Origin: a virus
Taxonomy: Duplodnaviria > Caudoviricetes
Virus record (IMG/VR): IMGVR_UViG_3300037510_000344
Span: 1-41,448 of that record
DNA length: 41,448 nt
Strand: one strand, 5' to 3'
Positions 483 to 41,448 of the stretch are shown here, piece after piece (positions within the stretch are counted from its first letter, which is position 1; each line of letters starts with the position of its first letter). The position numbers and the translations under genes were made by a program. The notes beneath the pieces were generated by a model. It ran no database searches. It was given only the letters and a program-made list of their open reading frames with translations, and was not told the origin of the DNA.

Positions 483-556
483 AGCAGGTTGGTGTAGTAG
501 CAACATTTCGGGCTCATAACCCGAGGCCAAGGGTGCGATTCCCTTACCTGCAACCA
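483..556 (+). tRNA. tRNA-Met (CAT), initiator-like
   Basis: Cloverleaf: GCAGGT/ACCTGC acceptor with 1:72 A.A mismatch, anticodon arm TCGGG-CTCATAA-CCCGA with three G-C pairs, T arm AAGGG/CCCTT, A73, encoded CCA. Confidence 0.85.
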
Positions 557-676: not shown

Positions 677-1399
677 ATGAAAGAGCGACCAATACTTTTC
701 AGTACCCCTATGGTGCGAGCCATTCTCGATGGGCGGAAGACGCAGACGCGGAGGATCTGCAAATGCATCTGCAATAGCATCCATCACGGAGGAAACCCGG
801 TGAAACTCCTTGGAGAATGGGGCCTTTCAACCCCTCCATTTCAGTGGGATGGAGAAGAATACCCATGGAATTGGACCGGTGAACGCGCTCCCAAAAAGTG
901 GGATTGGATCGAGGAATTCCAGACCGAAGTCGATGATCACGCTACCGCACCAGTTCGCTGCCCGTGGTCCGTTGGGGAACATCTCTGGGTCAAGGAAACT
1001 TGGCGAACCAACCGAAACTGGGACCACCTTGCGCCCAATGAGCTTCCGATCCACGACGACATCCTCACGGCTCAGTCGCAAATCGACTACCTTGCCGACG
1101 GAACCAAAAGCCAGCATGGCAAAACTCGTGTCTCCATCCACATGCCGCGGTGGGCATCCCGAATTGATCTGGAGATCACCGAGATTCGCGTGCAGCGATT
1201 GCAGGACATCAGCGAGGAGGACATCCTGTCCGAGGGCGTAACGGTGGATCGGGTAGCGGAGTGGTGCAATTACCCTTGGTCGAGCATTCCTACTCTCCAT
1301 CACGCTTGGAAAGTGCTCTGGGAATCGATCAACGGTGCCGACTCATGGAGCGCCAATCCATGGGTGTGGGCCATCAACTTCAAGCGAGTAAACGGGTAA
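677..1399 (+). CDS. ASCH/PUA-like conserved phage protein
   Basis: Family-typical motifs ERPILFSTPMVRAILDGRKTQTRR, SIHMPRWASRI, RLQDISEED, NPWVW. Confidence 0.75.
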   Translation: MKERPILFSTPMVRAILDGRKTQTRRICKCICNSIHHGGNPVKLLGEWGLSTPPFQWDGEEYPWNWTGERAPKKWDWIEEFQTEVDDHATAPVRCPWSVGEHLWVKETWRTNRNWDHLAPNELPIHDDILTAQSQIDYLADGTKSQHGKTRVSIHMPRWASRIDLEITEIRVQRLQDISEEDILSEGVTVDRVAEWCNYPWSSIPTLHHAWKVLWESINGADSWSANPWVWAINFKRVNG

Positions 1400-28111: not shown

Positions 28112-28534
28112 ATGAAGAAGATTTTGATTGTCGAGGATGATGCCCGGTTTGCGTCGATCATGGGTGAACTGCTGCGGACTGTGCGGCGAATCTTCGGATC
28201 TTCGGTATCGCTGGAATTTGTGGGTAGCCGGGCGGCAATGCTGACCCGGCTACCTGATGCCGATGTCATCGTTTACGACCTCGTATTGCCCGATTCGAAC
28301 AAGGAAGAGTCTCTTGTCTGGGTTCATGAGAATGCGACCACGCTGCCTCCAATGATTGCGCTATCCGGTTTTCAGGATGACGAGACGCGGCGCCAATGCC
28401 TCGCCGCCGGCTTCGTAGACTTTCTATCCAAAGACCTCTTCGTGATGTCACCTCCAGAAGCGTTTTTTGAGCGTTGCTATAACGCCACAATTCGGCATAG
28501 GTTTCCCGTAAATGGAAACCCGCAAGAAACCTGA
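28112..28534 (+). CDS. Stand-alone response regulator receiver (CheY-like) domain
   Basis: ILIVEDD, VYDLVLPD (phospho-Asp), IALSG, GFVDFLSK: all catalytic positions present. Confidence 0.85.
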   Translation: MKKILIVEDDARFASIMGELLRTVRRIFGSSVSLEFVGSRAAMLTRLPDADVIVYDLVLPDSNKEESLVWVHENATTLPPMIALSGFQDDETRRQCLAAGFVDFLSKDLFVMSPPEAFFERCYNATIRHRFPVNGNPQET

Positions 28535-29148: not shown

Positions 29149-29637
29149 ATGACTGACCGATTTCTCAAATACTTCCCGCTCCTGATCGACTTCGAAGGGT
29201 CCGTTTTCGAGAACGACCCCGACGATGCCGGCGGTGCCACCAAATTCGGGATCGATCAACGCAGCCATCCCGGTGAGGACATTCAACACCTAACCCTGGA
29301 TCGGGCACGCGAAATCTATTGGAACGATTACTGGCTTCCGGTGCATGGCGACGAGATGCCAAAGGGCGTCGGTGAAGTCATGTTTGATATTGCGGTCAAC
29401 AACGGCCGAGGTCGCGCCATCAAATGGGCACAGGAAACGTCCGGGGCCACCGCTGACGGAGTTCTCGGGCCAAAGACCATTGCCGCAATCAACGCTTTCG
29501 GGACAAATATGGCGCGGACCTTGATCGAGCGTCGGGAAGACTTCTACAGGTCGATCGCGAAAGGAAGTCAGGCGAAGTATCTGCGCGGCTGGCTGAACCG
29601 GAATAACCGGCTCTGGGACTACGTGGCCGCCCTGTGA
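29149..29637 (+). CDS. Endolysin, glycoside hydrolase family 108
   Basis: EG...NDPDDAGGATKFGI, FDIAVNNG, DGVLGPKT, RGWLNR. Confidence 0.9.
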   Translation: MTDRFLKYFPLLIDFEGSVFENDPDDAGGATKFGIDQRSHPGEDIQHLTLDRAREIYWNDYWLPVHGDEMPKGVGEVMFDIAVNNGRGRAIKWAQETSGATADGVLGPKTIAAINAFGTNMARTLIERREDFYRSIAKGSQAKYLRGWLNRNNRLWDYVAAL

Positions 29638-32827: not shown

Positions 32828-33279
32828 AGCGTTTTCTCCCGGATAGTGATCTCAACGCCGGGACGCGATCCGTACCGCTTTCGAATGATGTGATCGACGA
32901 CAAGGCAGTCGTCTCGCCAGATGATCGAAGTTAAAGCATCCTCTACTGCGCGCGTCAGCTTCACGCTGTCCGGCTTGGCGTCCGGGAAGGGCGGCGCGCT
33001 ATCCTTGAGACGAGAGGCGTTTTTGCCGGTTCCGAAGTGCGACGCAGGACGTGCAAGGTGGAAGGTCAATTCCAAGTAGATAGGGCAATCCCAGAGTTCA
33101 CCATCGTACTCACGACGCGCTGCATCAGAAACCGTGGTCTTCCATGCGCGAGACTTAGGGTTGTCGTCGGTGACCACCGTTCGGCCCGTGAATGCTCCGG
33201 CTTTCTTAAGAGCGAACGCTTTCTTTGATCCTGCCGTCTCCGGCTTCCCGTAGACGTAGAAGTTGATGGGAGGTTTCAT
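32824..33279 (-). CDS. rusA: RusA-family Holliday junction resolvase
   Basis: VYGKP..AGSK, FHLARP, KPDSVKLTRAVEDAL, WRDD. Confidence 0.85.
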   Translation of the reverse strand: MKPPINFYVYGKPETAGSKKAFALKKAGAFTGRTVVTDDNPKSRAWKTTVSDAARREYDGELWDCPIYLELTFHLARPASHFGTGKNASRLKDSAPPFPDAKPDSVKLTRAVEDALTSIIWRDDCLVVDHIIRKRYGSRPGVEITIREKTL

Positions 33280-33464
33280 GCGTACCAGAATCCTTTCTGA
33301 GTTCGGATCTCTTCGAACTTTTGCGCGATGTCGTGATGTCCAATATCCCGAAGGAATTGAAGCAGAGCTTCATCCGCGTCGCCGTGTGCGCATTCGACAT
33401 CGAAGTATTTGGACACTGCTTCCAAGGTGTTCATGCAGTGACGGGCCGCTTCAATCTCGTCCAT
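33276..33464 (-). CDS. Hypothetical protein
   Basis: ATG 33464 with GGAGG upstream; HGDADEALL...FWYA. Confidence 0.6.
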   Translation of the reverse strand: MDEIEAARHCMNTLEAVSKYFDVECAHGDADEALLQFLRDIGHHDIAQKFEEIRTQKGFWYA

Positions 33465-33691
33465 CACTTCACCTCCCTCAGTTGATCCGCGGTCGGCTCC
33501 CATTCGCTGAAGTGCTCCAGCCGTTTTCGAAGCCGTTCGAACTGGCGAGCGGACTTTTGTTCGGCGTAGTCGCTCTGTGAAATTCGGGATTCGATGCGCC
33601 ACATTGGTTTTTTGTCGGACTCCCTGTTGATAGGAGCCAGAATCCCGTCCGTGACGATGCAGAGAATTGCGAGTGCAATAAGTGCTTTCAT
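33464..33691 (-). CDS. Small protein with N-terminal signal/TM segment
   Basis: MKALIALAILCIV; downstream of a TTGACG element at 33744. Confidence 0.5.
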   Translation of the reverse strand: MKALIALAILCIVTDGILAPINRESDKKPMWRIESRISQSDYAEQKSARQFERLRKRLEHFSEWEPTADQLREVK

Positions 33692-33814
33692 AATTTTGAG
33701 TTAAGTATCCCCGCGCGGACTCAGGCAACAAAATCCCTCGTCAACCTGCCGCCAAGCACCTCCAGCGTGAGGCATATATCGGCAGGCCATCGTGTTGATG
33801 CGCGCGGGAAAGGG

Positions 33815-34618
33815 TTATACGATTTTCTCCATTTCCTTCCGAGCCCATTCCGGGATTCCGATGCGGAGAATGTTCTCGTCGTATCCGGGCCACTGATCTT
33901 TTTCGACGCAGCTCCGGTAAAGGGTCAAGTCGCGCTGGTACATCTTCCGACCGTATTCCAGCACGTCCGGCTCAATTGCGTAGACAGCCACCAGATAGGG
34001 CGCAGTTTTCTCGACGCAAATCAGCACGAATTCCCGTTTATCCATGCCGAGCAGGTTGCACAGATCGATGTAGTAGGCGCCCTGGACGTGGTAACGGTAA
34101 TTGTAGATCGAGCGTTCGAACTCGCTGACGCAGGCTTCAGCCGTGGTCTTGACGTCCGCGACCACGTTTCCGGTGATCGGCAGAAGATCCATACGACCTT
34201 TCCTGAGCGTCCCGTGGCCGTCTGTGGCCCAGAGCGACCGTTCCTTGTCGTGACCAAGCAGAAGCTTTGCGCGCGGATGCTTCCAGAGATTTCCGCACAT
34301 CGCATCGATCTGTGATTTCTCTTCCCTGGTCACGATATCCCTACCAGCATTCTCCGCCTTCCACGCAATTCCCTCTTTGGTGGAAAACTTCATCCCTTCC
34401 GGACGTACCGCCAGTTCGGAAACCGTATCAGGCTCCAAAAGGCAGCGGTGAAGCAGCGCGCCAAACCGCTGCGAATCGGTCGCCTCTGGCTTGCGCTCAA
34501 GATACGCTTTGAGGTGAGCCGGCGTCTTGGGCCATGCAAGCTGATCCAGCATCGACTTGCTGACACCATCGGCGGCGGTGTAGTCCTCGAAGGCTACGGA
34601 ATGAATGCCATCTTTCAT
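33815..34618 (-). CDS. recE: RecE/ExoVIII-like PD-(D/E)xK exonuclease
   Basis: GVSKSMLD, FGALLH..LLEP, KGRMD, DVKTT, YHVQGAYY, VEKTAPY. Confidence 0.85.
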   Translation of the reverse strand: MKDGIHSVAFEDYTAADGVSKSMLDQLAWPKTPAHLKAYLERKPEATDSQRFGALLHRCLLEPDTVSELAVRPEGMKFSTKEGIAWKAENAGRDIVTREEKSQIDAMCGNLWKHPRAKLLLGHDKERSLWATDGHGTLRKGRMDLLPITGNVVADVKTTAEACVSEFERSIYNYRYHVQGAYYIDLCNLLGMDKREFVLICVEKTAPYLVAVYAIEPDVLEYGRKMYQRDLTLYRSCVEKDQWPGYDENILRIGIPEWARKEMEKIV

Positions 34619-35370
34619 TTGGTTTCAGCGTCGAGGGTGAATGCTTGTGCAGCCGATTCTTTAGCGGCCTCAGGCCCAGGAATGAAGGGCTCTTGAGCCG
34701 GACCGCCAATGTCGAGGCCAGAAGCCACTTCGCGAGCCTTCGCTGGCTTCTCGGCGTATTCCCCAGCCATGAGGTCTTGCGCCAACGGAAGACCTTTTAG
34801 CGCATTCGGAAACGCATCGTTCTCGGCGCGATGGCGAGCCTTGTAGCGCAACATGTCTTTCGGATACTGAGACCACGGGCCAGCCTTCTTCCAGAGCCCG
34901 GCGACTTTGGCGTCTGACACGCTGAAGGTTCTACGAACCGGCTCACGATTACGAGGCTTGATGACCGAGACAGCGCACACCTCTTTGTTTGCCGTGATGG
35001 CCGGCGTGACTTCTTCCTCATCGGCGCGCGCGCCATCGACTAGGAAAAATTCATCGATGTCTTCGAATCCGGGCTGATTCATGCAGATCGCAAGGGTTGC
35101 GGGGCCGTAGACACTGACTTTCCCATTGATGACCGCAATGTTTTGAAGCGCCTGCATCGGAGAAAATCCAAGCTCTGCGCCGGTCTGGATCGCCAGCATG
35201 ACTTGCTCCGGCGTCTGAAACGATTTCGGGGCTAGATTGCTGGCGCAGACCGCTCGCGAAAAGCGAAACATGTCTTCCAGCGTAGTAAGTTGCACGCCAC
35301 GTTCAGTGACGAGGATCGGGGCTTTGGGTTGCTCGCGAGTAGCGAGTGCTTCGGGTTGGGGTTCGTTCAT
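34615..35370 (-). CDS. recT: RecT-like ssDNA annealing protein
   Basis: GAELGFSPMQALQNIAVINGK, AKVAGLW...GPWSQYPKDML; start moved to ATG 35370 because the longer ORF overlaps a tRNA. Confidence 0.8.
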   Translation of the reverse strand: MNEPQPEALATREQPKAPILVTERGVQLTTLEDMFRFSRAVCASNLAPKSFQTPEQVMLAIQTGAELGFSPMQALQNIAVINGKVSVYGPATLAICMNQPGFEDIDEFFLVDGARADEEEVTPAITANKEVCAVSVIKPRNREPVRRTFSVSDAKVAGLWKKAGPWSQYPKDMLRYKARHRAENDAFPNALKGLPLAQDLMAGEYAEKPAKAREVASGLDIGGPAQEPFIPGPEAAKESAAQAFTLDAETK

Positions 35371-35388
35371 AAATGCGATGTTGAAAAG

Positions 35389-35480
35389 TGCATCCGGCAG
35401 GGATCGAACCTGCATGGGCTCCGGTAGAAACGGAGTGCCTGTTTAGGAAACAAGTGCCTGATCCATTCGGCCACGGATGC
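35389..35480 (-). tRNA. tRNA-Arg body with two tandem anticodon arms (CCT and TCT)
   Basis: GCATCCG/CGGATGC acceptor, D loop with GGA, CTTGT-TTCCTAA-ACAGG, CTCCG-TTTCTAC-CGGAG, GCAGG-TTCGATC-CCTGC, A73; CCA not encoded. Confidence 0.85.
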
Positions 35481-35585
35481 GAAAACTCGGGACGGCCAGA
35501 TATTGGACTTTTGATCCACCGACCTTTCGGCATCCCGCTGCCGTGAGCTGAACTTACCGCACGTCTGCGGCAGGAGGGCTCAAAG

Positions 35586-35685
35586 TGGGAGGAGTCAAGG
35601 AATCGAACCTTGGCCTGTCTTTTTTGATGCCTACTCCGGGTTTTCCCGTCTCGGACTTACGGTGCTACCATTACACCAACTCCTC
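35586..35685 (-). ncRNA. tRNA-like RNA with the anticodon arm replaced by a ~48-nt insert
   Basis: GAGGAGT/ACTCCTC acceptor followed by CCA, D arm GTGT-AATGGTA-GCAC, T arm CAAGG-TTCGATT-CCTTG. Confidence 0.75.
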
Positions 35686-35695
35686 ATAAAACTCG

Positions 35696-35795
35696 TTGCT
35701 CGGGCCGCGCTGTGGCGGCTAGAGAGTCGCAGCGTATATTCACGCCAGCGGTGCTTCAGGCAAAGCCTTGTACGTCATACCGTACTGCCGAGCAA
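35696..35795 (-). ncRNA. Degenerate tRNA-shaped RNA
   Basis: TTGCTCGG/CCGAGCAA closing stem, D-like GTAC-GGTATGAC-GTAC, T-like GCCGC/GCGGC abutting the 3' strand. Confidence 0.45.
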
Positions 35796-35803
35796 ATCGA
35801 AGG

Positions 35804-35888
35804 GCGAAGCTTGTGCGACAGGACTTCCACCTGCAACTACCCGGAGTCCCGGGCCGTCTTTTGATCGTTGGCGTACGCACAAGCTCGC
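35804..35888 (-). ncRNA. tRNA-like RNA with extended acceptor stem and 4-nt anticodon loop
   Basis: AGCTTGTGCG/CGCACAAGCT, CCCGG-GACT-CCGGG, T arm GCAGG-TGGAAGT-CCTGT. Confidence 0.6.
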
Positions 35889-35904
35889 TTCCTTTCGGAA
35901 AGGG

Positions 35905-36018
35905 CGGCTTTGGCGGGATTTTCACCCGCGAATGGCGTTGACGGAACGCCCGTTTTGTCTCGGTGGTGCGCTTGCTAGGTGGTCATCCAAAGCACCGCTG
36001 CCTACAAACTACAAAGCC
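35905..36018 (-). ncRNA. tRNA-like RNA with ~50-nt D-loop insertion
   Basis: GGCTTTG/CAAAGCC acceptor, TA, D stem GTTT/AAAC, GGCGT-TCCGTCA-ACGCC, T arm GCGGG-TGAAAAT-CCCGC. Confidence 0.65.
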
Positions 36019-36022
36019 GTTT

Positions 36023-36194
36023 AATCTGTGAAAGAACTGCCGGTCTCTCCCGGCTGTCACGACTTCAGGAGTTTCCTCCATTTAGAGCCATGGGTGACGT
36101 GTCGTTCACCTTATTTCCATTTTACGGGGCGTGATCTCAAGCAGCCCCAAGCCCGATATTCACCAGCGCAGGCATCCGCTGGAATCTGTGAAAG
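36023..36194 (-). ncRNA. Multi-hairpin element bracketed by a 12-bp direct repeat (CTTTCACAGATT)
   Basis: Repeats at 36023-36034 and 36183-36194; five hairpins between them, the last GCCGG-GAGAGA-CCGGC. Confidence 0.5.
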
Positions 36195-36195
36195 T

Positions 36196-36363
36196 CTACG
36201 CCTCAATCCCGATCTCTCCAATCGGCACGATTCGCCGACCGCAGAGTTTGCCGGCGTCGATGGCTTGATTGTAGTCGGTGATGGACGGAAGCAGTCCTTG
36301 GTGGATCAAGCCACGGGCAGCTTCGAGCAGCATCAAATCGGTGGAGGTAAGTCGGCGTTTCAT
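36196..36363 (-). CDS. Small hypothetical protein
   Basis: ATG 36363 overlapping the upstream stop. Confidence 0.45.
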   Translation of the reverse strand: MKRRLTSTDLMLLEAARGLIHQGLLPSITDYNQAIDAGKLCGRRIVPIGEIGIEA

Positions 36364-36992
36364 TCGGTTTTTACGGTTTGAGTGTGAACGGAAAGGATTT
36401 CGAAGGCCTCCAGCGGCGTCTTCACCGCGTCGATCAGGTCTTTGATGACCACAACCATTGGATGCGTCCACTTCGCTTCACGGGCCGAAGCTTTGAACGA
36501 CTTCCAGAGCAGGCTGATTTTCTCGGCGTCGTCGTCGGCAACGATCGATTCAGGATGCGGCAGATTGCATGGAACCCGGTCGATTCTAGCGCCCGCGGCT
36601 GCGATGATCAGCTTTGCCCGGATGGCACCATCGAAGCCTTCGGCCAGAACGTAAGAATCCGTTGAGATCGCAAAGTCAACCGGCGGTGGTTGCGGGACGA
36701 TTTCTTCAGCCAGCGGCAATTCCGGCTGATCAGGGTCCGCAATCGTGTCCTCGACCGAATCGCTGTGCTTCTTTGAAAAGCTCAGCGTGGTTTTGATGCG
36801 ACGATCCTTGTCCGCGTGATTGCCAGATTCGGCGTCTCGGAGCGTGATCTTGAATGAGGCGTGGAGATTGATTTCTCCTTCTTCAGCAATGATCGCTGAA
36901 ACCTCGGGCCAATTGCGGCCCAGAAGGGTGGAGAATTGGACGCCGCCTTTTTCGGCAATGTCTTTGGCGAGTTCGGTCGTGATTTCACTCAT
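36360..36992 (-). CDS. Hypothetical protein
   Basis: ATG 36992; DPDQPELPL linker typical of phage early proteins. Confidence 0.65.
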   Translation of the reverse strand: MSEITTELAKDIAEKGGVQFSTLLGRNWPEVSAIIAEEGEINLHASFKITLRDAESGNHADKDRRIKTTLSFSKKHSDSVEDTIADPDQPELPLAEEIVPQPPPVDFAISTDSYVLAEGFDGAIRAKLIIAAAGARIDRVPCNLPHPESIVADDDAEKISLLWKSFKASAREAKWTHPMVVVIKDLIDAVKTPLEAFEILSVHTQTVKTE

Positions 36993-37179
36993 TGGTTGGT
37001 GCGTTTTTGGTGATTGGTTTCCCCTCGTAAGCATCGAGACCGATGCCGATGAGGTGCGCAATGGTTTGCTGCTGAGAAAGAATGGTTCGGCCCTGAATCT
37101 TGCCTTGCTCGATCTGAACCCGAACGATGCGATCCGTGAGCCTCTTCGGGACTCGGATGTGGATGGAATGCTCCGTCAT
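36985..37179 (-). CDS. Ribbon-helix-helix-like DNA-binding protein
   Basis: SIHIRVPKRLTDRI...SQQQTIAHLIGIGL fits an Arc/CopG-type strand-helix-helix. Confidence 0.5.
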   Translation of the reverse strand: MTEHSIHIRVPKRLTDRIVRVQIEQGKIQGRTILSQQQTIAHLIGIGLDAYEGKPITKNAPTNE

Positions 37180-37484
37180 TTGATCAGAGGACAATCGGTT
37201 TTGTGATCCATGCCATCGGGCATCCCGCAGAGTCGGCAAATCGACCGAAGAAGCGCCGGCTCGCCCTGGATCTCCATCACGGTTGAGAACCGCGGCATGT
37301 CGTGACGTGCAAAGGGATGGCGGTCCAGTTCGGCTAGAAGCTCTTCGTTGCTCGAGATGAGCGTATTTATCTGGGTTTCCTGGGCCTTGATCTTTGCGCC
37401 GAGTCGTCGGTTCGATTCAAGGACAGCATCGAATCCTTCCTTGATCGATTCCAGAAGATGCATCGTTTCCTCGTGAGCATTCAT
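37176..37484 (-). CDS. Coiled-coil protein with C-terminal CxxC...HxxxC
   Basis: ATG 37484; CRLCG...HKTDC. Confidence 0.6.
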   Translation of the reverse strand: MNAHEETMHLLESIKEGFDAVLESNRRLGAKIKAQETQINTLISSNEELLAELDRHPFARHDMPRFSTVMEIQGEPALLRSICRLCGMPDGMDHKTDCPLIK

Positions 37485-37693
37485 TGCGCGGAACGGTATC
37501 CCTGCTGTTTCAGGTGGGCTTGGATATCCGATCGAGCAATGATGCAATAGGCATTTAGCTCGATCAAATCCGTAGATTGAGTCGGCAGCGCTGCGTTTTC
37601 TCGCATGATTTCCGCCAGCTTGAGAATCGATTCCCGCAGGCACCGATATTCGATGCCCGTCCTCACGTCCTCGATGGTTTCTGTTTCGTTCAT
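37481..37693 (-). CDS. Hypothetical protein
   Basis: Coupled in operon. Confidence 0.55.
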   Translation of the reverse strand: MNETETIEDVRTGIEYRCLRESILKLAEIMRENAALPTQSTDLIELNAYCIIARSDIQAHLKQQGYRSAQ

Positions 37694-37703
37694 GGATCAA
37701 CCT

Positions 37704-38006
37704 TTAGCGGTTCGACTCATTTGCGGCAATGAGTTTTCCGGACTCCGTAGCTTTACACGTAGAAAACACCGTTTTATCAAGGGTTTTCGATCCGTAGACC
37801 AGACTCAAATCAGGCTCCGAAACCCAGAGAATCGATTCCCCTCGCTGCATATCTTCGAGCGCCGCAATCAAGGCCTGCGTCTCCAGAACGCGACCACGGA
37901 TGTCTTCGGAGCTGACCGTTTTTGGGAAATCCAGGACAAGTGCTTCCTCGTACGCGGTGCAGCGTTTGAGCAGGAGCGTGCGCAGGAGATCGAGGGACAG
38001 ATTCAT
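37704..38006 (-). CDS. Hypothetical protein
   Basis: In-operon ORF. Confidence 0.55.
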   Translation of the reverse strand: MNLSLDLLRTLLLKRCTAYEEALVLDFPKTVSSEDIRGRVLETQALIAALEDMQRGESILWVSEPDLSLVYGSKTLDKTVFSTCKATESGKLIAANESNR

Positions 38007-38085
38007 CGCATCAAATCCTTCCAGAGCATGCGACCCAATATGATCCGCATCATCCTAATGATTGCGGTAAATCCATCATCGTTTT

Positions 38086-38277
38086 TCATGGCACTTTTGT
38101 TTCGTTGGAAGTTTTCAATTCTGATCGTTCGATGTTCTTTCGAAACTGCTGCATCATCTCGATGAGCTGGTCCATGTCTTGAACGGAAGGAGAACCGGCG
38201 CTCGGGCTGTAAAATGAGAGGTAAACGTTGAAATGTCCGATCGGGAAAGACCAAGTGATGGTTGTCGGTTGGTTCAT
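38086..38277 (-). CDS. Hypothetical protein
   Basis: ATGA-coupled. Confidence 0.5.
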   Translation of the reverse strand: MNQPTTITWSFPIGHFNVYLSFYSPSAGSPSVQDMDQLIEMMQQFRKNIERSELKTSNETKVP

Positions 38278-38492
38278 TTATCTCGATAGAATGAGAGTTT
38301 CATTTTGGGAATCCTCCCCTGAAGTTCTCGACTGAAGATTGACCTGAAACCGGCTTTCATTTTTCTGAGTCTACTCGAATACCGACCCGCCGCCGCCAAC
38401 CGAGGGTTATATTGCCAATTTAACGAGCAAAGAAATTGACCGTCAAAAGGATCGGTGAACACAGCTTCGATTCGAGAAGGTCTATATTTCAT
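38274..38492 (-). CDS. Hypothetical basic protein
   Basis: ATG 38492 overlapping the upstream stop. Confidence 0.5.
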   Translation of the reverse strand: MKYRPSRIEAVFTDPFDGQFLCSLNWQYNPRLAAAGRYSSRLRKMKAGFRSIFSRELQGRIPKMKLSFYRDK

Positions 38493-38773
38493 GGCGCTGT
38501 AGCAAAGTACCGCGCCGCAGCCAGCATCCGCATTTCGCGACGAATGTTGTCGAGCTGCCGACGCTGAATCCATGTGTTACTCCCGACGTATCGAAGGTTG
38601 CGGTACCGTTCTCGCTGGATCTGCCAGAGGTTTCGCATCGCGGATCGGCTGAGAGGGGGCGGAGGATCTAAGCGCACCCGCATTGACACGAATTTGATGC
38701 CGCCGCATCCATTTTCGTCAACGGTGTCGTCGAGCTGGGCAAACTGTCTGAGACTGAAAGGCAGTTTATTCAT
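38489..38773 (-). CDS. Hypothetical protein
   Basis: ATG 38773 overlapping the end of the upstream gene. Confidence 0.5.
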   Translation of the reverse strand: MNKLPFSLRQFAQLDDTVDENGCGGIKFVSMRVRLDPPPPLSRSAMRNLWQIQRERYRNLRYVGSNTWIQRRQLDNIRREMRMLAAARYFATAP

Positions 38774-39164
38774 CCTCTTTAAGCTGAAGAGTCCCATCAG
38801 CTTTCAGCCCCATGATTTTCTGCCCGCAGCAGCCATAACTTGCGTACCAAATCGGGGTGCTGCGCCCCATCTGGAAATCACCGCCCTTGTAACCTTCGAA
38901 GATTTCTCCCATGCACGGGCGCACAATCGCCAAAGCTTCCGCAGCCGTGAATTGCTGGCCATCCACAAGCTCAAAGGCCAAATCGGAGTAATAACCGCGG
39001 TAGCTGTGTGGTTCGTGGAACTTGTGGACCAGAGTTTCAGGCTCCAGAGAAGACAGATGATCAATCAGCTTCCCGAGCGTCATTTGGGATTCGGATCGCT
39101 CTTTCTGCCATTGCGCTGACATTCCGTTAATCAGGGCCTGCATTGGGTGAATGGATTCGTTCAT
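38766..39164 (-). CDS. Conserved phage hypothetical protein
   Basis: PHSYRGYYSDLAFE...YKGGDFQM..TPIW..YG motif. Confidence 0.7.
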   Translation of the reverse strand: MNESIHPMQALINGMSAQWQKERSESQMTLGKLIDHLSSLEPETLVHKFHEPHSYRGYYSDLAFELVDGQQFTAAEALAIVRPCMGEIFEGYKGGDFQMGRSTPIWYASYGCCGQKIMGLKADGTLQLKEDE

Positions 39165-39226
39165 GCCCGCATCCTCTCATCCCGACGAATCGCTTCAAGG
39201 CCGGCGATGGTTTCACCGTAAACGTG

Positions 39227-39571
39227 TCAGCGGAAAGGCCAGAGTGGATGAAACGATGACGAGGAGTTCGAAAGTTTCACTGGATCTGGCTGACGAGGAG
39301 CAAAATCTCCCCTGTATTGCAGGTGATTTTCTTCATCCCACCAAATTAAAAATCTGAGGTCATCAGCAGCGACGGAAGCGGTGTTATATCCGAGAAACGC
39401 TAGATCTTCGATAATTTTGTTCGATGGGGACTTTCTCAGAAGCAAAGATCCGCATCCGTTTTTAATCGCCAACTGAATCAGGCGCGCTATTTCTTCGCGC
39501 TCACGATCCGTCGCTATAGGTGATGACAAGGCTTTGGCTTCTTCTGCGGTTGGGATCTTCACGGCTTCCAT
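39227..39571 (-). CDS. Hypothetical protein
   Basis: IPTAEEAK...LGY...IWW; similar layout to 39559-39807. Confidence 0.55.
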   Translation of the reverse strand: MEAVKIPTAEEAKALSSPIATDREREEIARLIQLAIKNGCGSLLLRKSPSNKIIEDLAFLGYNTASVAADDLRFLIWWDEENHLQYRGDFAPRQPDPVKLSNSSSSFHPLWPFR

Positions 39572-39807
39572 GAGATAGAAAAAGTGGGCTCCTTAGCTCC
39601 AAATCGAGTTGGCAACAGGATATCGTATCCGGCTTGAACCAGTAGAGCTTTTGCTTCCGACGAAATGTCCGTCACGGCGATTTCAAATTGACCTTTTTCA
39701 GCGGCTTCTTCGATCGACGTTTTCAGCGATGAAAGCTCGGCTTCGAGGCGGGATCTTTCAACGGCCAAGGCTTTTTCGGCTACGTCTTTTGCGTTCGGGA
39801 TGTTCAT
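39559..39807 (-). CDS. Hypothetical protein
   Basis: IPNAKDVA...AGY...ISW. Confidence 0.6.
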   Translation of the reverse strand: MNIPNAKDVAEKALAVERSRLEAELSSLKTSIEEAAEKGQFEIAVTDISSEAKALLVQAGYDILLPTRFGAKEPTFSISWKP

Positions 39808-39823
39808 TGGGTTAAACTGGATT

Positions 39824-40402
39824 TTAGGGCTTTCTATTGATGTATTTCACTCCGCTTTTCTCTCGGATTCGGTGCCAACAACAGCCGATGAAATATTGAA
39901 ATTTTACTGCGGCTTCTTCTTTTCTGGCTGTCGCGTGGATGCATTCGATGATTTCCGTCAGCGGTAGTCTCTTCACGAAGTAGAGGATTTTGGGACGTAC
40001 ATTGCCCGCCATGGGGCCAAATGTTTCGGCCCATTCCTTCAAGACGATTTCGACAGCTTCTTGACCTTGGTTCTCGATCGATCTTCTAATTCCCCGAAAC
40101 TTCTCAACGTCCGCGGCGATCCTTTTTGAGACTTCTTCTTCGTCGTAAAGCATTTGGCCTTTCCCCAAATTGCATGATCTACACGCCGCAACCAAATTTG
40201 TGAGATCGTCGCTCCCTCCTTCGCTTTTGGGCTTGAGATGGTCGACCTGAAGTTGTGCATCTGGACTTTTGTCTCCGCAATAGCGGCAGGCAAATCCAGC
40301 GATCGAAAGAACTTCAAATCTGGTAGTCAGAGAAAGACCTTCCCTTTTCCACTTCGGCCCCTTCTTTTTTTGATTCACCTTATCGGGCGTTGCGGATTTC
40401 AT
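39824..40402 (-). CDS. HNH endonuclease
   Basis: RFEVL..FACRYCG...VDHLKPKSEGGSDDLTNLVAACRSCNLGK. Confidence 0.85.
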   Translation of the reverse strand: MKSATPDKVNQKKKGPKWKREGLSLTTRFEVLSIAGFACRYCGDKSPDAQLQVDHLKPKSEGGSDDLTNLVAACRSCNLGKGQMLYDEEEVSKRIAADVEKFRGIRRSIENQGQEAVEIVLKEWAETFGPMAGNVRPKILYFVKRLPLTEIIECIHATARKEEAAVKFQYFIGCCWHRIREKSGVKYINRKP

Positions 40403-40820
40403 CGACTGTTGGTTCGGAGATTTGATTTTCAATTACAGCGCCGTTCACTCGTTCTGCTGGGTCGTGAATGTGAATTCCAGCCGCTGCCGCTCTTTTGCGC
40501 GCCGCTGCCCTTCCACCAGAAGAAGCCAGAATCCGGTTCTTGCGGGCCTTGTCTTCGTGCCGCTGCGGATAAAAGGCCACCTTGATTGAATCTCCTTCGA
40601 ACCACCAAAGGTCACAGTCGGTCATGGCTTCTTTGCGTGTGACGCCGGCTATTTGTTGCCACTTGCGATCCGACCACTCTCGACAATCCTCGATTATCCC
40701 ATGGTTTTCTTGCCCGATCGCGAAACGAAGCAAGCAAAGCCAAGTAGCGCGTTGAATTGGGTCGGCACCCTTAAACTCCGGCCCATCTAAGGCGGAGATG
40801 TGAATGTTGAGCCATTCCAT
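40380..40820 (-). CDS. Replication initiator N-terminal-like protein (YdaU/DUF1376-like)
   Basis: MEWLNIH...RATWLCLL...then basic ARKNRILASSGGRAAA, the usual initiator N-domain layout. Confidence 0.45.
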   Translation of the reverse strand: MEWLNIHISALDGPEFKGADPIQRATWLCLLRFAIGQENHGIIEDCREWSDRKWQQIAGVTRKEAMTDCDLWWFEGDSIKVAFYPQRHEDKARKNRILASSGGRAAARKRAAAAGIHIHDPAERVNGAVIENQISEPTVDEIRNAR

Positions 40821-40830
40821 GGTTGGGGGC

Positions 40831-41031
40831 TCAAGAAATGCGCCAAACTCTAATCTGATCATCAGTCTTGCGCTGCACCATCACCCACCCCTGCTTGCGA
40901 CCGTATTCGCGTACGCATCGAGCTTCACCCGCTGAGGTCAAAATGCTTTGGTTGGGAAGAAGAAGTCGAGCGGCGTCTGGCAGCGCGTGAATGCGTTTTC
41001 TGGGTGCAGGAGGGAGTGGAGTGTCGTGCAT
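40831..41031 (-). CDS. Small basic protein, first gene of the early operon (leaderless)
   Basis: ATG 41031 is 36 nt after TTGACG (41067); ends IRVWRIS. Confidence 0.55.
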   Translation of the reverse strand: MHDTPLPPAPRKRIHALPDAARLLLPNQSILTSAGEARCVREYGRKQGWVMVQRKTDDQIRVWRIS

Positions 41032-41128
41032 ATAGTCCATGATGTGTGCGTCGCGTGCATACGTCAAGTGCATTTGTGCATTCACTACCGTTCGCTAGTA
41101 CCGTTCGCTACTCATCTGGGAAGTGCAT
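41026..41128 (-). promoter_or_regulatory. Early leftward promoter with five GTGCAT copies and a tandem 12-mer
   Basis: TTGACG-N17-CATCAT; GTGCAT at 41026, 41055, 41068, 41076, 41123; TACCGTTCGCTA at 41086 and 41099. Confidence 0.55.
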
Positions 41129-41406
41129 AATCAAATCAAAGGGTTTGCTACGCCTTTCGTGACAGCATCGAACCATCAAAATCCATGACTATCGGTACGA
41201 AGCTGTGCTTCGGACCTAAGCCCAAGCGGCTATGAGCGCCGTCGCTGTCACGGGAAGGGCTGAAGCGCGGGCAACGGTGGTGAAAGCGGTGCTGTCACAA
41301 TCACGCGAGGATCGAATACTCATCGACTGGTTTACGGTGATACCATCAGAACTGATAATTCTCATCCATAACTGAGAATCCGCGATTCTGATACTCGCAT
41401 TTTTGA

Positions 41407-41413
41407 GGGTCCT
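41407..41413 (+). other. cosQ-like site GGGTCCT
   Basis: Matches the lambda cosQ heptamer; 21 nt before the terminal repeat. Confidence 0.65.
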
Positions 41414-41434
41414 TCCCATGTTTGAGAAATTGGG

Positions 41435-41448
41435 AACAGGGTCACGGT
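41435..41448. repeat. Right copy of 14-bp terminal repeat (probable cohesive end)
   Basis: Identical to positions 1-14. Confidence 0.9.

Follow-up and report, generated by a model that had tools for sequence, protein, structure and literature searches.

An array of tRNA-framed RNAs in the early region of a soil phage genome includes an arginine tRNA gene with two anticodon arms

The window, by which we mean the whole stretch of DNA analyzed (41,448 nucleotides), comprises a 41.4-kb phage genome with a 14-base overlap at its termini. The head genes are located on the plus strand, and the minus strand carries a block encoding RecT, exonuclease VIII, RusA, and DnaB, directly downstream of the array of RNAs described here (Table 1). 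Since the named homologues among the best 120 matches of the DnaB protein belonged to the Chthoniobacteraceae (~50% identity), and since the 3' end of unit 5 was identical in 23 of 24 bases to tRNA-Arg from genomes of our Verrucomicrobiota sample, the host of this soil phage is probably verrucomicrobial. A single tRNA-Met(CAU) gene with a UGCGAUU-type T loop was observed at the start of the late block (positions 483 to 556, plus strand), and a gene for a response-regulator receiver domain (28112 to 28534, plus strand) was found just upstream of the GH108 endolysin gene (29149 to 29637). The search for homologous arrays next to related RecT genes provided 13 loci with 43 to 44% identity, of which none contained a tRNA or array match. 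The region had initially been described as ORF-free, which holds loosely: short mechanical ORFs overlap the array, and none of the six tested matched PHROGs.

Table 1. Features of the array and its surroundings (positions in the window)
Feature	Position	Strand	Description
RecT-like gene	34615..35370	-	Directly downstream of the array; first gene of the recombination/replication block (exonuclease VIII, RusA, DnaB); context only
Unit 5	35389..35480	-	Frame of tRNA-Arg (A20) that carries two anticodon arms in tandem; no encoded CCA end
Unit 5, second anticodon loop	35424..35430	-	Anticodon UCU (reads AGA); C38, versus A38 in four homologues
Unit 5, first anticodon loop	35443..35449	-	Anticodon CCU (reads AGG)
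Spacer between units 4 and 5	35481..35585	-	Structured, hairpin with UCAAAAG loop, not tRNA-shaped; z -1.85; no homologue found
Unit 4	35586..35685	-	tRNA frame with a conserved module in place of the anticodon arm; belongs to a phage family that is widespread
Unit 4, insert core	35629..35658	-	Short stem, GAGA/GAGUA internal loop, capping hairpin
Unit 3	35696..35795	-	Multi-hairpin closed by 8 bp, no T loop; z -2.96
Unit 2	35804..35888	-	13-bp closing stem, UGGAAGU T loop, hairpin with 4-nt loop in the anticodon position
Unit 1	35905..36018	-	tRNA frame, UGAAAAU T loop, ~45-nt D-loop insert, noncanonical 7-nt anticodon loop
Leader hairpin	36039..36060	-	GUGACAG box, then a GC-rich stem; 20 nt upstream of unit 1; not in Rfam

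The initial annotation proposed five units, each with an acceptor-like stem and an abutting T-like arm. A descriptor consisting of a 7-bp acceptor stem that abuts a T arm with a 5-bp stem and a 7-nt loop matched the minus strand four times (36018 to 35906, 35882 to 35811, 35685 to 35589, and 35480 to 35390). These matches correspond to units 1, 2, 4, and 5, with ends in agreement with the coordinates first assigned, and only unit 3 failed the descriptor. There was no further match in the rest of the window, and not even one was obtained in any of 2,000 dinucleotide shuffles of the 821-nt region. The descriptor is strict, since the plus-strand tRNA-Met escapes it. The peculiarities ascribed to the individual units were all recovered, namely, the D-loop insert of unit 1, the extended acceptor and the 4-nt loop of unit 2, the stem-closed multi-hairpin core of unit 3, the replaced anticodon arm of unit 4, and the doubled anticodon arm of unit 5.

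The Rfam tRNA model (RF00005; gathering cut-off of 29 bits) scored unit 5 with 50.9 bits and unit 4 with 40.5 bits, no Rfam match was obtained for units 1 to 3 at an E value of up to 10, and ARAGORN with default settings called only unit 5 in the array. None of units 1, 2, 4, and 5 contained a single 5-bp anticodon stem with a 7-nt loop carrying U33 and a purine at position 37. In the anticodon position, unit 5 has two such arms, unit 4 has none, unit 1 presents a loop with C33 and C37, and unit 2 has a 4-nt loop. The statement that the decoding parts of all units are altered therefore does not extend to unit 5, in which both anticodon loops are well formed. The branch geometry is 7/5 in units 1, 4, and 5, whereas in unit 2 the T stem has 5 bp and the closing stem is longer; the combination of an 8/4 or 9/3 branch with a serine-type long variable arm, typical of allo-tRNAs, was absent from these units. 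When cultured phages and plasmids were searched by BLAST with the whole array or with parts of it, only generic tRNA or leader matches were returned, and the 20 best matches inspected in a Verrucomicrobiota-centered sample of 401 genomes corresponded to chance or to ordinary tRNA-Arg/Gln.

The leader hairpin recurs in unrelated phages. It resembles the P2 region of C4 antisense RNA (RF01695), yet there was no Rfam match, and no 9-nt target of its loops was present within positions 33000 to 41448; an assignment to this family was thus rejected. The GUGACAG box of the leader (36054 to 36060, minus strand) is found twice more near the right end (41245 to 41298, minus strand), again on the early strand. 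The window contains 8 matches to this box versus 3.6 expected, a number reached by 4 of 100 shuffles. In Cronobacter phage CS01, an unannotated tmRNA-like stretch (L050, 1534 to 1727, plus strand) directly follows the same leader hairpin.

The fold of unit 2 had a z value of -3.02. Unit 3 also has a good fold, yet the hairpin in its T position has a 6-nt loop that lacks a T-loop signature. This unit carries an 11-nt perfect complement to the insert of unit 1, which is marginal given that 14 of 300 shuffles reach it; long-range pairing of the two units was rejected as a mechanism, as cofolding of the excised units gained only 1.4 kcal/mol. A pattern search of viral contigs for units 1 and 2 resulted in 0 loci and 5 chance loci, and pattern and BLAST searches for units 1 to 3 provided no homologues, which is a weak negative. 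These three units are probably further lineage-specific passengers of a nondecoding kind.

Unit 4 belongs to a family that was detected with a D-loop/T-loop pattern allowing a long gap and subsequently with a pattern for the insert core only. Its module contains an internal loop that we take to be of the bulged-G type and is capped by a variable loop of 7 to 10 nt, and the D arm is like that of phage tRNA-Trp. Of the 119 loci from the core-only search, 86 show a paired T arm following the core, and an ordinary tRNA lies next to it in 60 of the 86. The family comprises 60 distinct sequences in addition to that of the window and is not in Rfam; L548, a chance row among the 62 aligned, does not enter the numbers 60 and 86 given here. 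Below the insert, the two pairs of the stem are formed in 94% and 98% of the rows (shuffles, 57% and 62%), and the capping hairpin is formed in 98% of the rows of the 62-row set. In an alignment of 23 sequences, 19 of 24 pairs changed on both sides. A covariance model scored 13 held-out members with 61 to 93 bits and ordinary tRNAs with 40 bits at most. With the same model, 151 genomes (26 candidates scored in each) gave only matches of 77 to 78 nt with at most 48 bits, and no cultured phage carrying this family was found.

The suggestion that tRNA scaffolds carry cargo RNAs is supported for unit 4, because the conserved insert covaries across phages, sits on varied frames, and occurs in arrays of repeated frames; it does not apply to unit 5, which resembles a functional arginine tRNA to which an anticodon arm has been added rather than a decoy deprived of its decoding parts. 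In ten loci (L472, L539, L543, L555, L556, L563, L577, L579, L586, and L623), one tRNA frame with an AGUCAGG-type acceptor is repeated two to four times with differing inserts of 40 to 100 nt, and in most of these loci the unit 4 module is one of the inserts. In L111/L152, a 219-nt unit with a Leu-type tRNA frame and an insert of ~160 nt lies directly 3' of a two-armed tRNA-Arg gene, and in L616 the same acceptor sequence encloses a unit of 149 nt as well as an RNA of the unit 4 type. Unit 4 is predicted not to decode. Phage tRNA clusters contain at least two further recurring types of remodeled tRNA: one has a GAAGUAGAC-type insert (L396, L399, L414, L427, and L487), and the other carries a hairpin and an ACAGCA segment between the D and anticodon arms (L400, L416, L429, L435, L460, and L463).

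Both anticodon arms of unit 5 have a 5-bp stem and a 7-nt loop and are related by a 19-nt tandem repeat. The same design was found in four other distinct sequences (L030, L074, L111, which is identical to L152, and L337). Among viral loci, pattern scans detected it once in a set of 34 and once in a set of 23, both times in the same phage (L030). Of 120 metagenome loci, three had it (L074, L111, and L152; 51 of 64 parts scanned). It was absent from 120 genome_contigs loci, for which 44 of 64 parts were scanned, and from the 401 genomes of the Verrucomicrobiota-centered sample, and cultured phages contained no full-length match. A search with the first arm only returned 76 loci, which corresponded to 37 single-arm tRNAs, 22 non-tRNAs, 13 rewired tRNAs, 2 others, and 2 two-armed tRNAs. 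The latter two (L030 and L337), in which the D arm is normal and a hairpin is added, each bear the other AGR loop. The set thus consists of five sequences, mostly retrieved with patterns that demand two Arg-type loops, and L030 and L074 are related phages. The window has no protein in common with the DNA available for the other four sequences.

The rewired tRNA-Arg, with a UCU or a CCU anticodon, has in the place of the D arm a stem that is capped by the anticodon arm, followed on the 3' side by a D-loop-like AAUUGGA segment. This type was observed at L345, L351, L353, L356, L367, L368, L372, L379, L380, L388, and L389 (at ~1185 to 1265), with similar forms at L346 and L391; its 7 distinct sequences are recognized by Rfam as tRNA only, with 37 to 42 bits. 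In L337, a complete 71-kb phage, a phage RNase P RNA (870 to 1132, minus strand; 131.8 bits) is encoded directly downstream of the two-armed tRNA-Arg gene.

All five two-armed tRNAs combine a UCU with a CCU anticodon, in the order CCU-UCU in two cases and UCU-CCU in three. For the four sequences that are equally long, pairing holds in 100 of 100 cells, and both sides change in each of the five pairs of the second arm; L337 was kept outside this count because of its longer linker, and the structure, having been derived from the same sequences, is favored over slid controls. The D loop contains A20 in all five, and C35 and U36 are present in both arms of each, which is in part imposed by the search patterns. 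Position 73 is A in three, including the window, and U in two. The CCA end is encoded in four of the five genes, the exception being that of the window. The second arm is followed in every case by a variable loop of 5 to 6 nt whose last base matches position 15 (Levitt match), and it is preceded by GGC-N, a copy of the 3' strand of the D stem, even in L337 with its longer linker. The C that completes this copy, immediately after the first arm, was seen in all five, as compared to 6 of 30 single-arm relatives (p = 0.0014, a generous value given the incomplete independence of the five sequences).

Units 4 and 5 have homologues that occur apart from each other, and those of units 1 to 3 were not found, which contradicts the idea of one five-unit system. 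The array combines, in mosaic fashion, two or more RNA types with independent distributions and is not a set of five decoys, and the feature described initially is mostly real, although misread in part.

Two genomes, one complete (G004) and one 75% complete (G003), encode ~30 tRNAs each, among which the two-armed gene is the only one with a UCU or CCU anticodon. By comparison, UCU and CCU are provided by two separate genes within 2.4 kb in 14 of the 37 single-arm loci. In the DnaB gene of the window, AGA/AGG encode arginine (7 of 11 fall at columns that are at least 95% Arg), and a recoding of AGA/AGG was rejected. These codons account for 51 of 225 Arg codons in the early block, the strand of the array, and for 35 of the 398 Arg codons of the late block (p = 3e-6), and their genome-wide use of 8.5 per 1,000 is similar to the 7.7 in the bacterial loci sampled. 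A modified UCU arm alone could read both AGA and AGG, so that a second decoding arm would not be needed.

The array is best read as a processed polycistron that would release nondecoding RNAs similar to RNA1 and RNA2 of phage T5 and a two-headed arginine tRNA. With somewhat less than even confidence, we propose that a row of four tRNA-framed genes and a hairpin cluster is cut from the early transcript by host tRNA enzymes, that unit 5 is charged with arginine and reads AGG or AGA with either arm, and that unit 4 does not decode. RNase P, 3' trimming, and CCA addition would free the units from the polycistron. The identity elements of tRNA-Arg are A20, C35, U/G36, and A/G73, and the arginyl-tRNA synthetase would charge unit 5 via A20 and the C35/U36 present in both arms. 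Pairing of the 5' strand of the D stem with either GGC copy would bring the first or the second arm into the decoding position, and this choice of register would let one gene replace the usual UCU/CCU pair and keep a spare anticodon. We interpret the conserved features, the gene content, and the codon use as those of a single gene that likely takes the place of two isoacceptors and may decode through either arm. The tRNA frame of unit 4 may serve processing and stability, the bulged-G module being displayed to a host or phage protein. A bolder version, in which a two-headed tRNA switches registers, uses two anticodons on the ribosome, survives a cut in one loop, and rides on a mix-and-match array of exchangeable RNA domains, appears possible but doubtful.

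The main rival holds that unit 5 decodes via the first arm only and that the second arm, placed in the variable-arm position, is a fixed handle or bait for the arginyl-tRNA synthetase, a modifying enzyme, or an anticodon nuclease; for the other units, this rival agrees with the proposal above. Constrained folds placed the two registers within 4 kcal/mol of each other in all five sequences, which supports our proposal. With all helices fixed, however, register B was 2 to 8 kcal/mol weaker than register A, and the first arm lost two pairs in four of the five, whereas register A keeps all five helices and is the minimum-energy fold predicted for the copy of the window. The latter results speak for a fixed second arm and against equivalent use of both, and a long variable arm is tolerated in type II tRNAs. 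The lack of an encoded CCA end and the C38 of the second arm in the window, together with U73 in two of the five sequences, also count against our proposal, as do the small number of two-armed sequences and the patterns with which most of them were retrieved. A handle for charging, on the other hand, would be needless, as C35 and U36 are already part of both Arg anticodons; a fixed division of labor does not predict that UCU and CCU swap freely; and the second GGC-N is retained regardless of linker length. We regard a fixed second arm as a serious possibility, but not a probable one.

A parallel exists in tryptophan tRNAs. A search without anticodon constraint revealed, in 14 of 113 loci (L408, L412, L424, L428, L448, L454, L456, L465, L468, L486, L492, L493, L494, and L498), a tRNA-Trp with a UCA arm followed by a CCA arm, as illustrated by L428 (1188 to 1283, plus strand). 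In the 11 distinct sequences, 55 of 55 and 53 of 55 cells of the two stems were paired, and UCA came first in all 11. Two of the five phages checked keep a separate Trp-CCA gene, and in three of five the longest ORF became 1.5- to 4-fold longer with TGA read as sense. The fixed order and the separate Trp-CCA gene favor a nondecoding second arm in this tRNA, a parallel that supports the handle or bait and weighs against two decoding arms in unit 5. As in the Trp form, the tandem 5-bp/7-nt arms of the Arg form differ at the wobble base (U34 or C34), and a short variable loop follows the second arm. The Trp form, in contrast, has a fixed order, lacks a second D-stem copy, and is tied to stop-codon recoding, whereas the Arg form swaps its order and its phage uses the standard code. 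The logic of the Trp case is not simply transferable to Arg, because both Arg anticodons suit the synthetase and their order is free.

It is unlikely that all units, including unit 5, are nontranslational decoys that titrate tRNA-binding defense enzymes, with the two Arg loops doubling the bait. Unit 4-type RNAs, which are widespread and cannot present a normal anticodon, would suit this role, as would the position of the array in the early block; irregular tRNA polycistrons near toxin-antitoxin genes are described in the parts of PMC5389517 covered. However, no defense-related family was seen among the flanking ORFs scanned. A decoy also sits poorly with a two-armed tRNA that supplies the UCU and CCU anticodons in two almost complete sets of tRNAs, keeps A20 and the Levitt match, and encodes CCA in four of five genes.

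Less probable still is a precursor that loses one of its arms, either through cleavage and ligation of the RNA or through recombination of the short direct repeats, and so yields one or the other of two ordinary tRNAs. The second arm is indeed a 19-nt tandem repeat, and the loss of either arm leaves a canonical cloverleaf, but no splicing enzyme or intron signature was evident, the ORFs scanned included no RNA ligase, and the linker of L337 is unequal. The only sequencing run listed as containing this DNA was of soil DNA and is possibly its source, none being of RNA; its contigs contained no joint that skips an arm of unit 5. Least probable of all is a decaying tRNA cluster in which the doubled arm is a neutral tandem duplication: no homologues were found for units 1 to 3, which may therefore have decayed, and no unit encodes a full discriminator and CCA end, but decay is excluded for units 4 and 5, since a neutral copy would repeat both anticodon and stem, whereas all five two-armed tRNAs have mixed anticodons and compensated second stems, and the core shared by a covarying family is preserved in unit 4.

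Taken together, the analysis establishes the shapes of the RNAs, that units 4 and 5 are conserved and covary, and that UCU is constantly paired with CCU. The arginine tRNA with two anticodons is conserved and appears to be undescribed. The textbook rule assigns one anticodon to one tRNA, and a gene whose two arms swap order offers a cheap and direct test of two-headed decoding. The occurrence of both Arg and Trp two-armed forms suggests a recurring phage design. If one arm alone decodes, the second would point to an unrecognized function as handle or bait. The unit 4 family is a large, covarying, and alignable addition to the long-unexplained tRNA-like stable RNAs of T4 and T5, and it can be seen as a natural counterpart of the tRNA-scaffold trick of RNA engineering.

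With respect to known systems, the insert of unit 4 recalls loops L1 and L3 of the yybP-ykoY Mn2+ riboswitch (RF00080) in its GAGUA/GAGA loop and its CA-containing loop of 8 to 9 nt. According to the parts of PMC6754395 covered, this riboswitch has two helical legs and a sarcin-ricin-like (SRL-like) L1 from which an extruded, conserved A docks on L3. We compared a permuted version of it with real riboswitch loci and with that article and rejected it: the loops of unit 4 are 3 bp apart on one helix instead of on two docked legs, there was no RF00080 match, and no invariant docking A is present, the second position of the 5x4 loop being A in 46 of the 62 rows and G in the other 16.

Mukai et al. 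(PMC5389517), as far as the parts of the text and supplement covered are concerned, describe polycistrons of irregular tRNAs in soil data, with possible five-stem junctions and one 64-nt D loop that is similar to the D-loop insert of unit 1. Those tRNAs have 8/4 or 9/3 branches or extra loops and are attributed to Acidobacteria, near toxin-antitoxin genes, whereas the array consists of 7/5 frames in a phage. Among the 35 and 40 ORFs scanned, no toxin-antitoxin family was recognized, most upstream ORFs being without any match. A two-anticodon tRNA was not present in these parts, and other parts of the supplement or the figures may hold closer cases. Titles and the beginnings of abstracts listed in literature searches, subscription papers aside, likewise mentioned neither a natural two-anticodon tRNA nor the insert family of unit 4.

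The closest relatives in kind are RNA1 (144 nt) and RNA2 (125 nt) of phage T5, annotated as "tRNA-like stable RNA with unknown functions" (NC_005859), and the species 1 RNA rnaC of T4 (NC_000866), which, like the array units, are RNAs of phage tRNA clusters. As in unit 4, RNA1 and RNA2 keep the D arm, the T arm, and the closing stem, and other hairpins replace the anticodon arm; the unit 4 family shares with them the upper half of a tRNA, the replaced anticodon arm, and the location in a phage tRNA region. The insert of unit 4 nevertheless differs from T5 RNA1/RNA2 and T4 rnaC/rnaD, as its model matched only ordinary tRNAs in the T4 and T5 loci, and the T5 RNAs are annotated as stable RNAs, whereas unit 4 is known here by prediction only. 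Unlike unit 5, neither RNA1 and RNA2 nor rnaC has two anticodon arms. With the single-arm phage tRNA-Arg(UCU) and tRNA-Arg(CCU) (RF00005; 30 distinct sequences), unit 5 shares the frame and the first anticodon stem, and it differs from them in a second full arm that bears the anticodon of the other isoacceptor.
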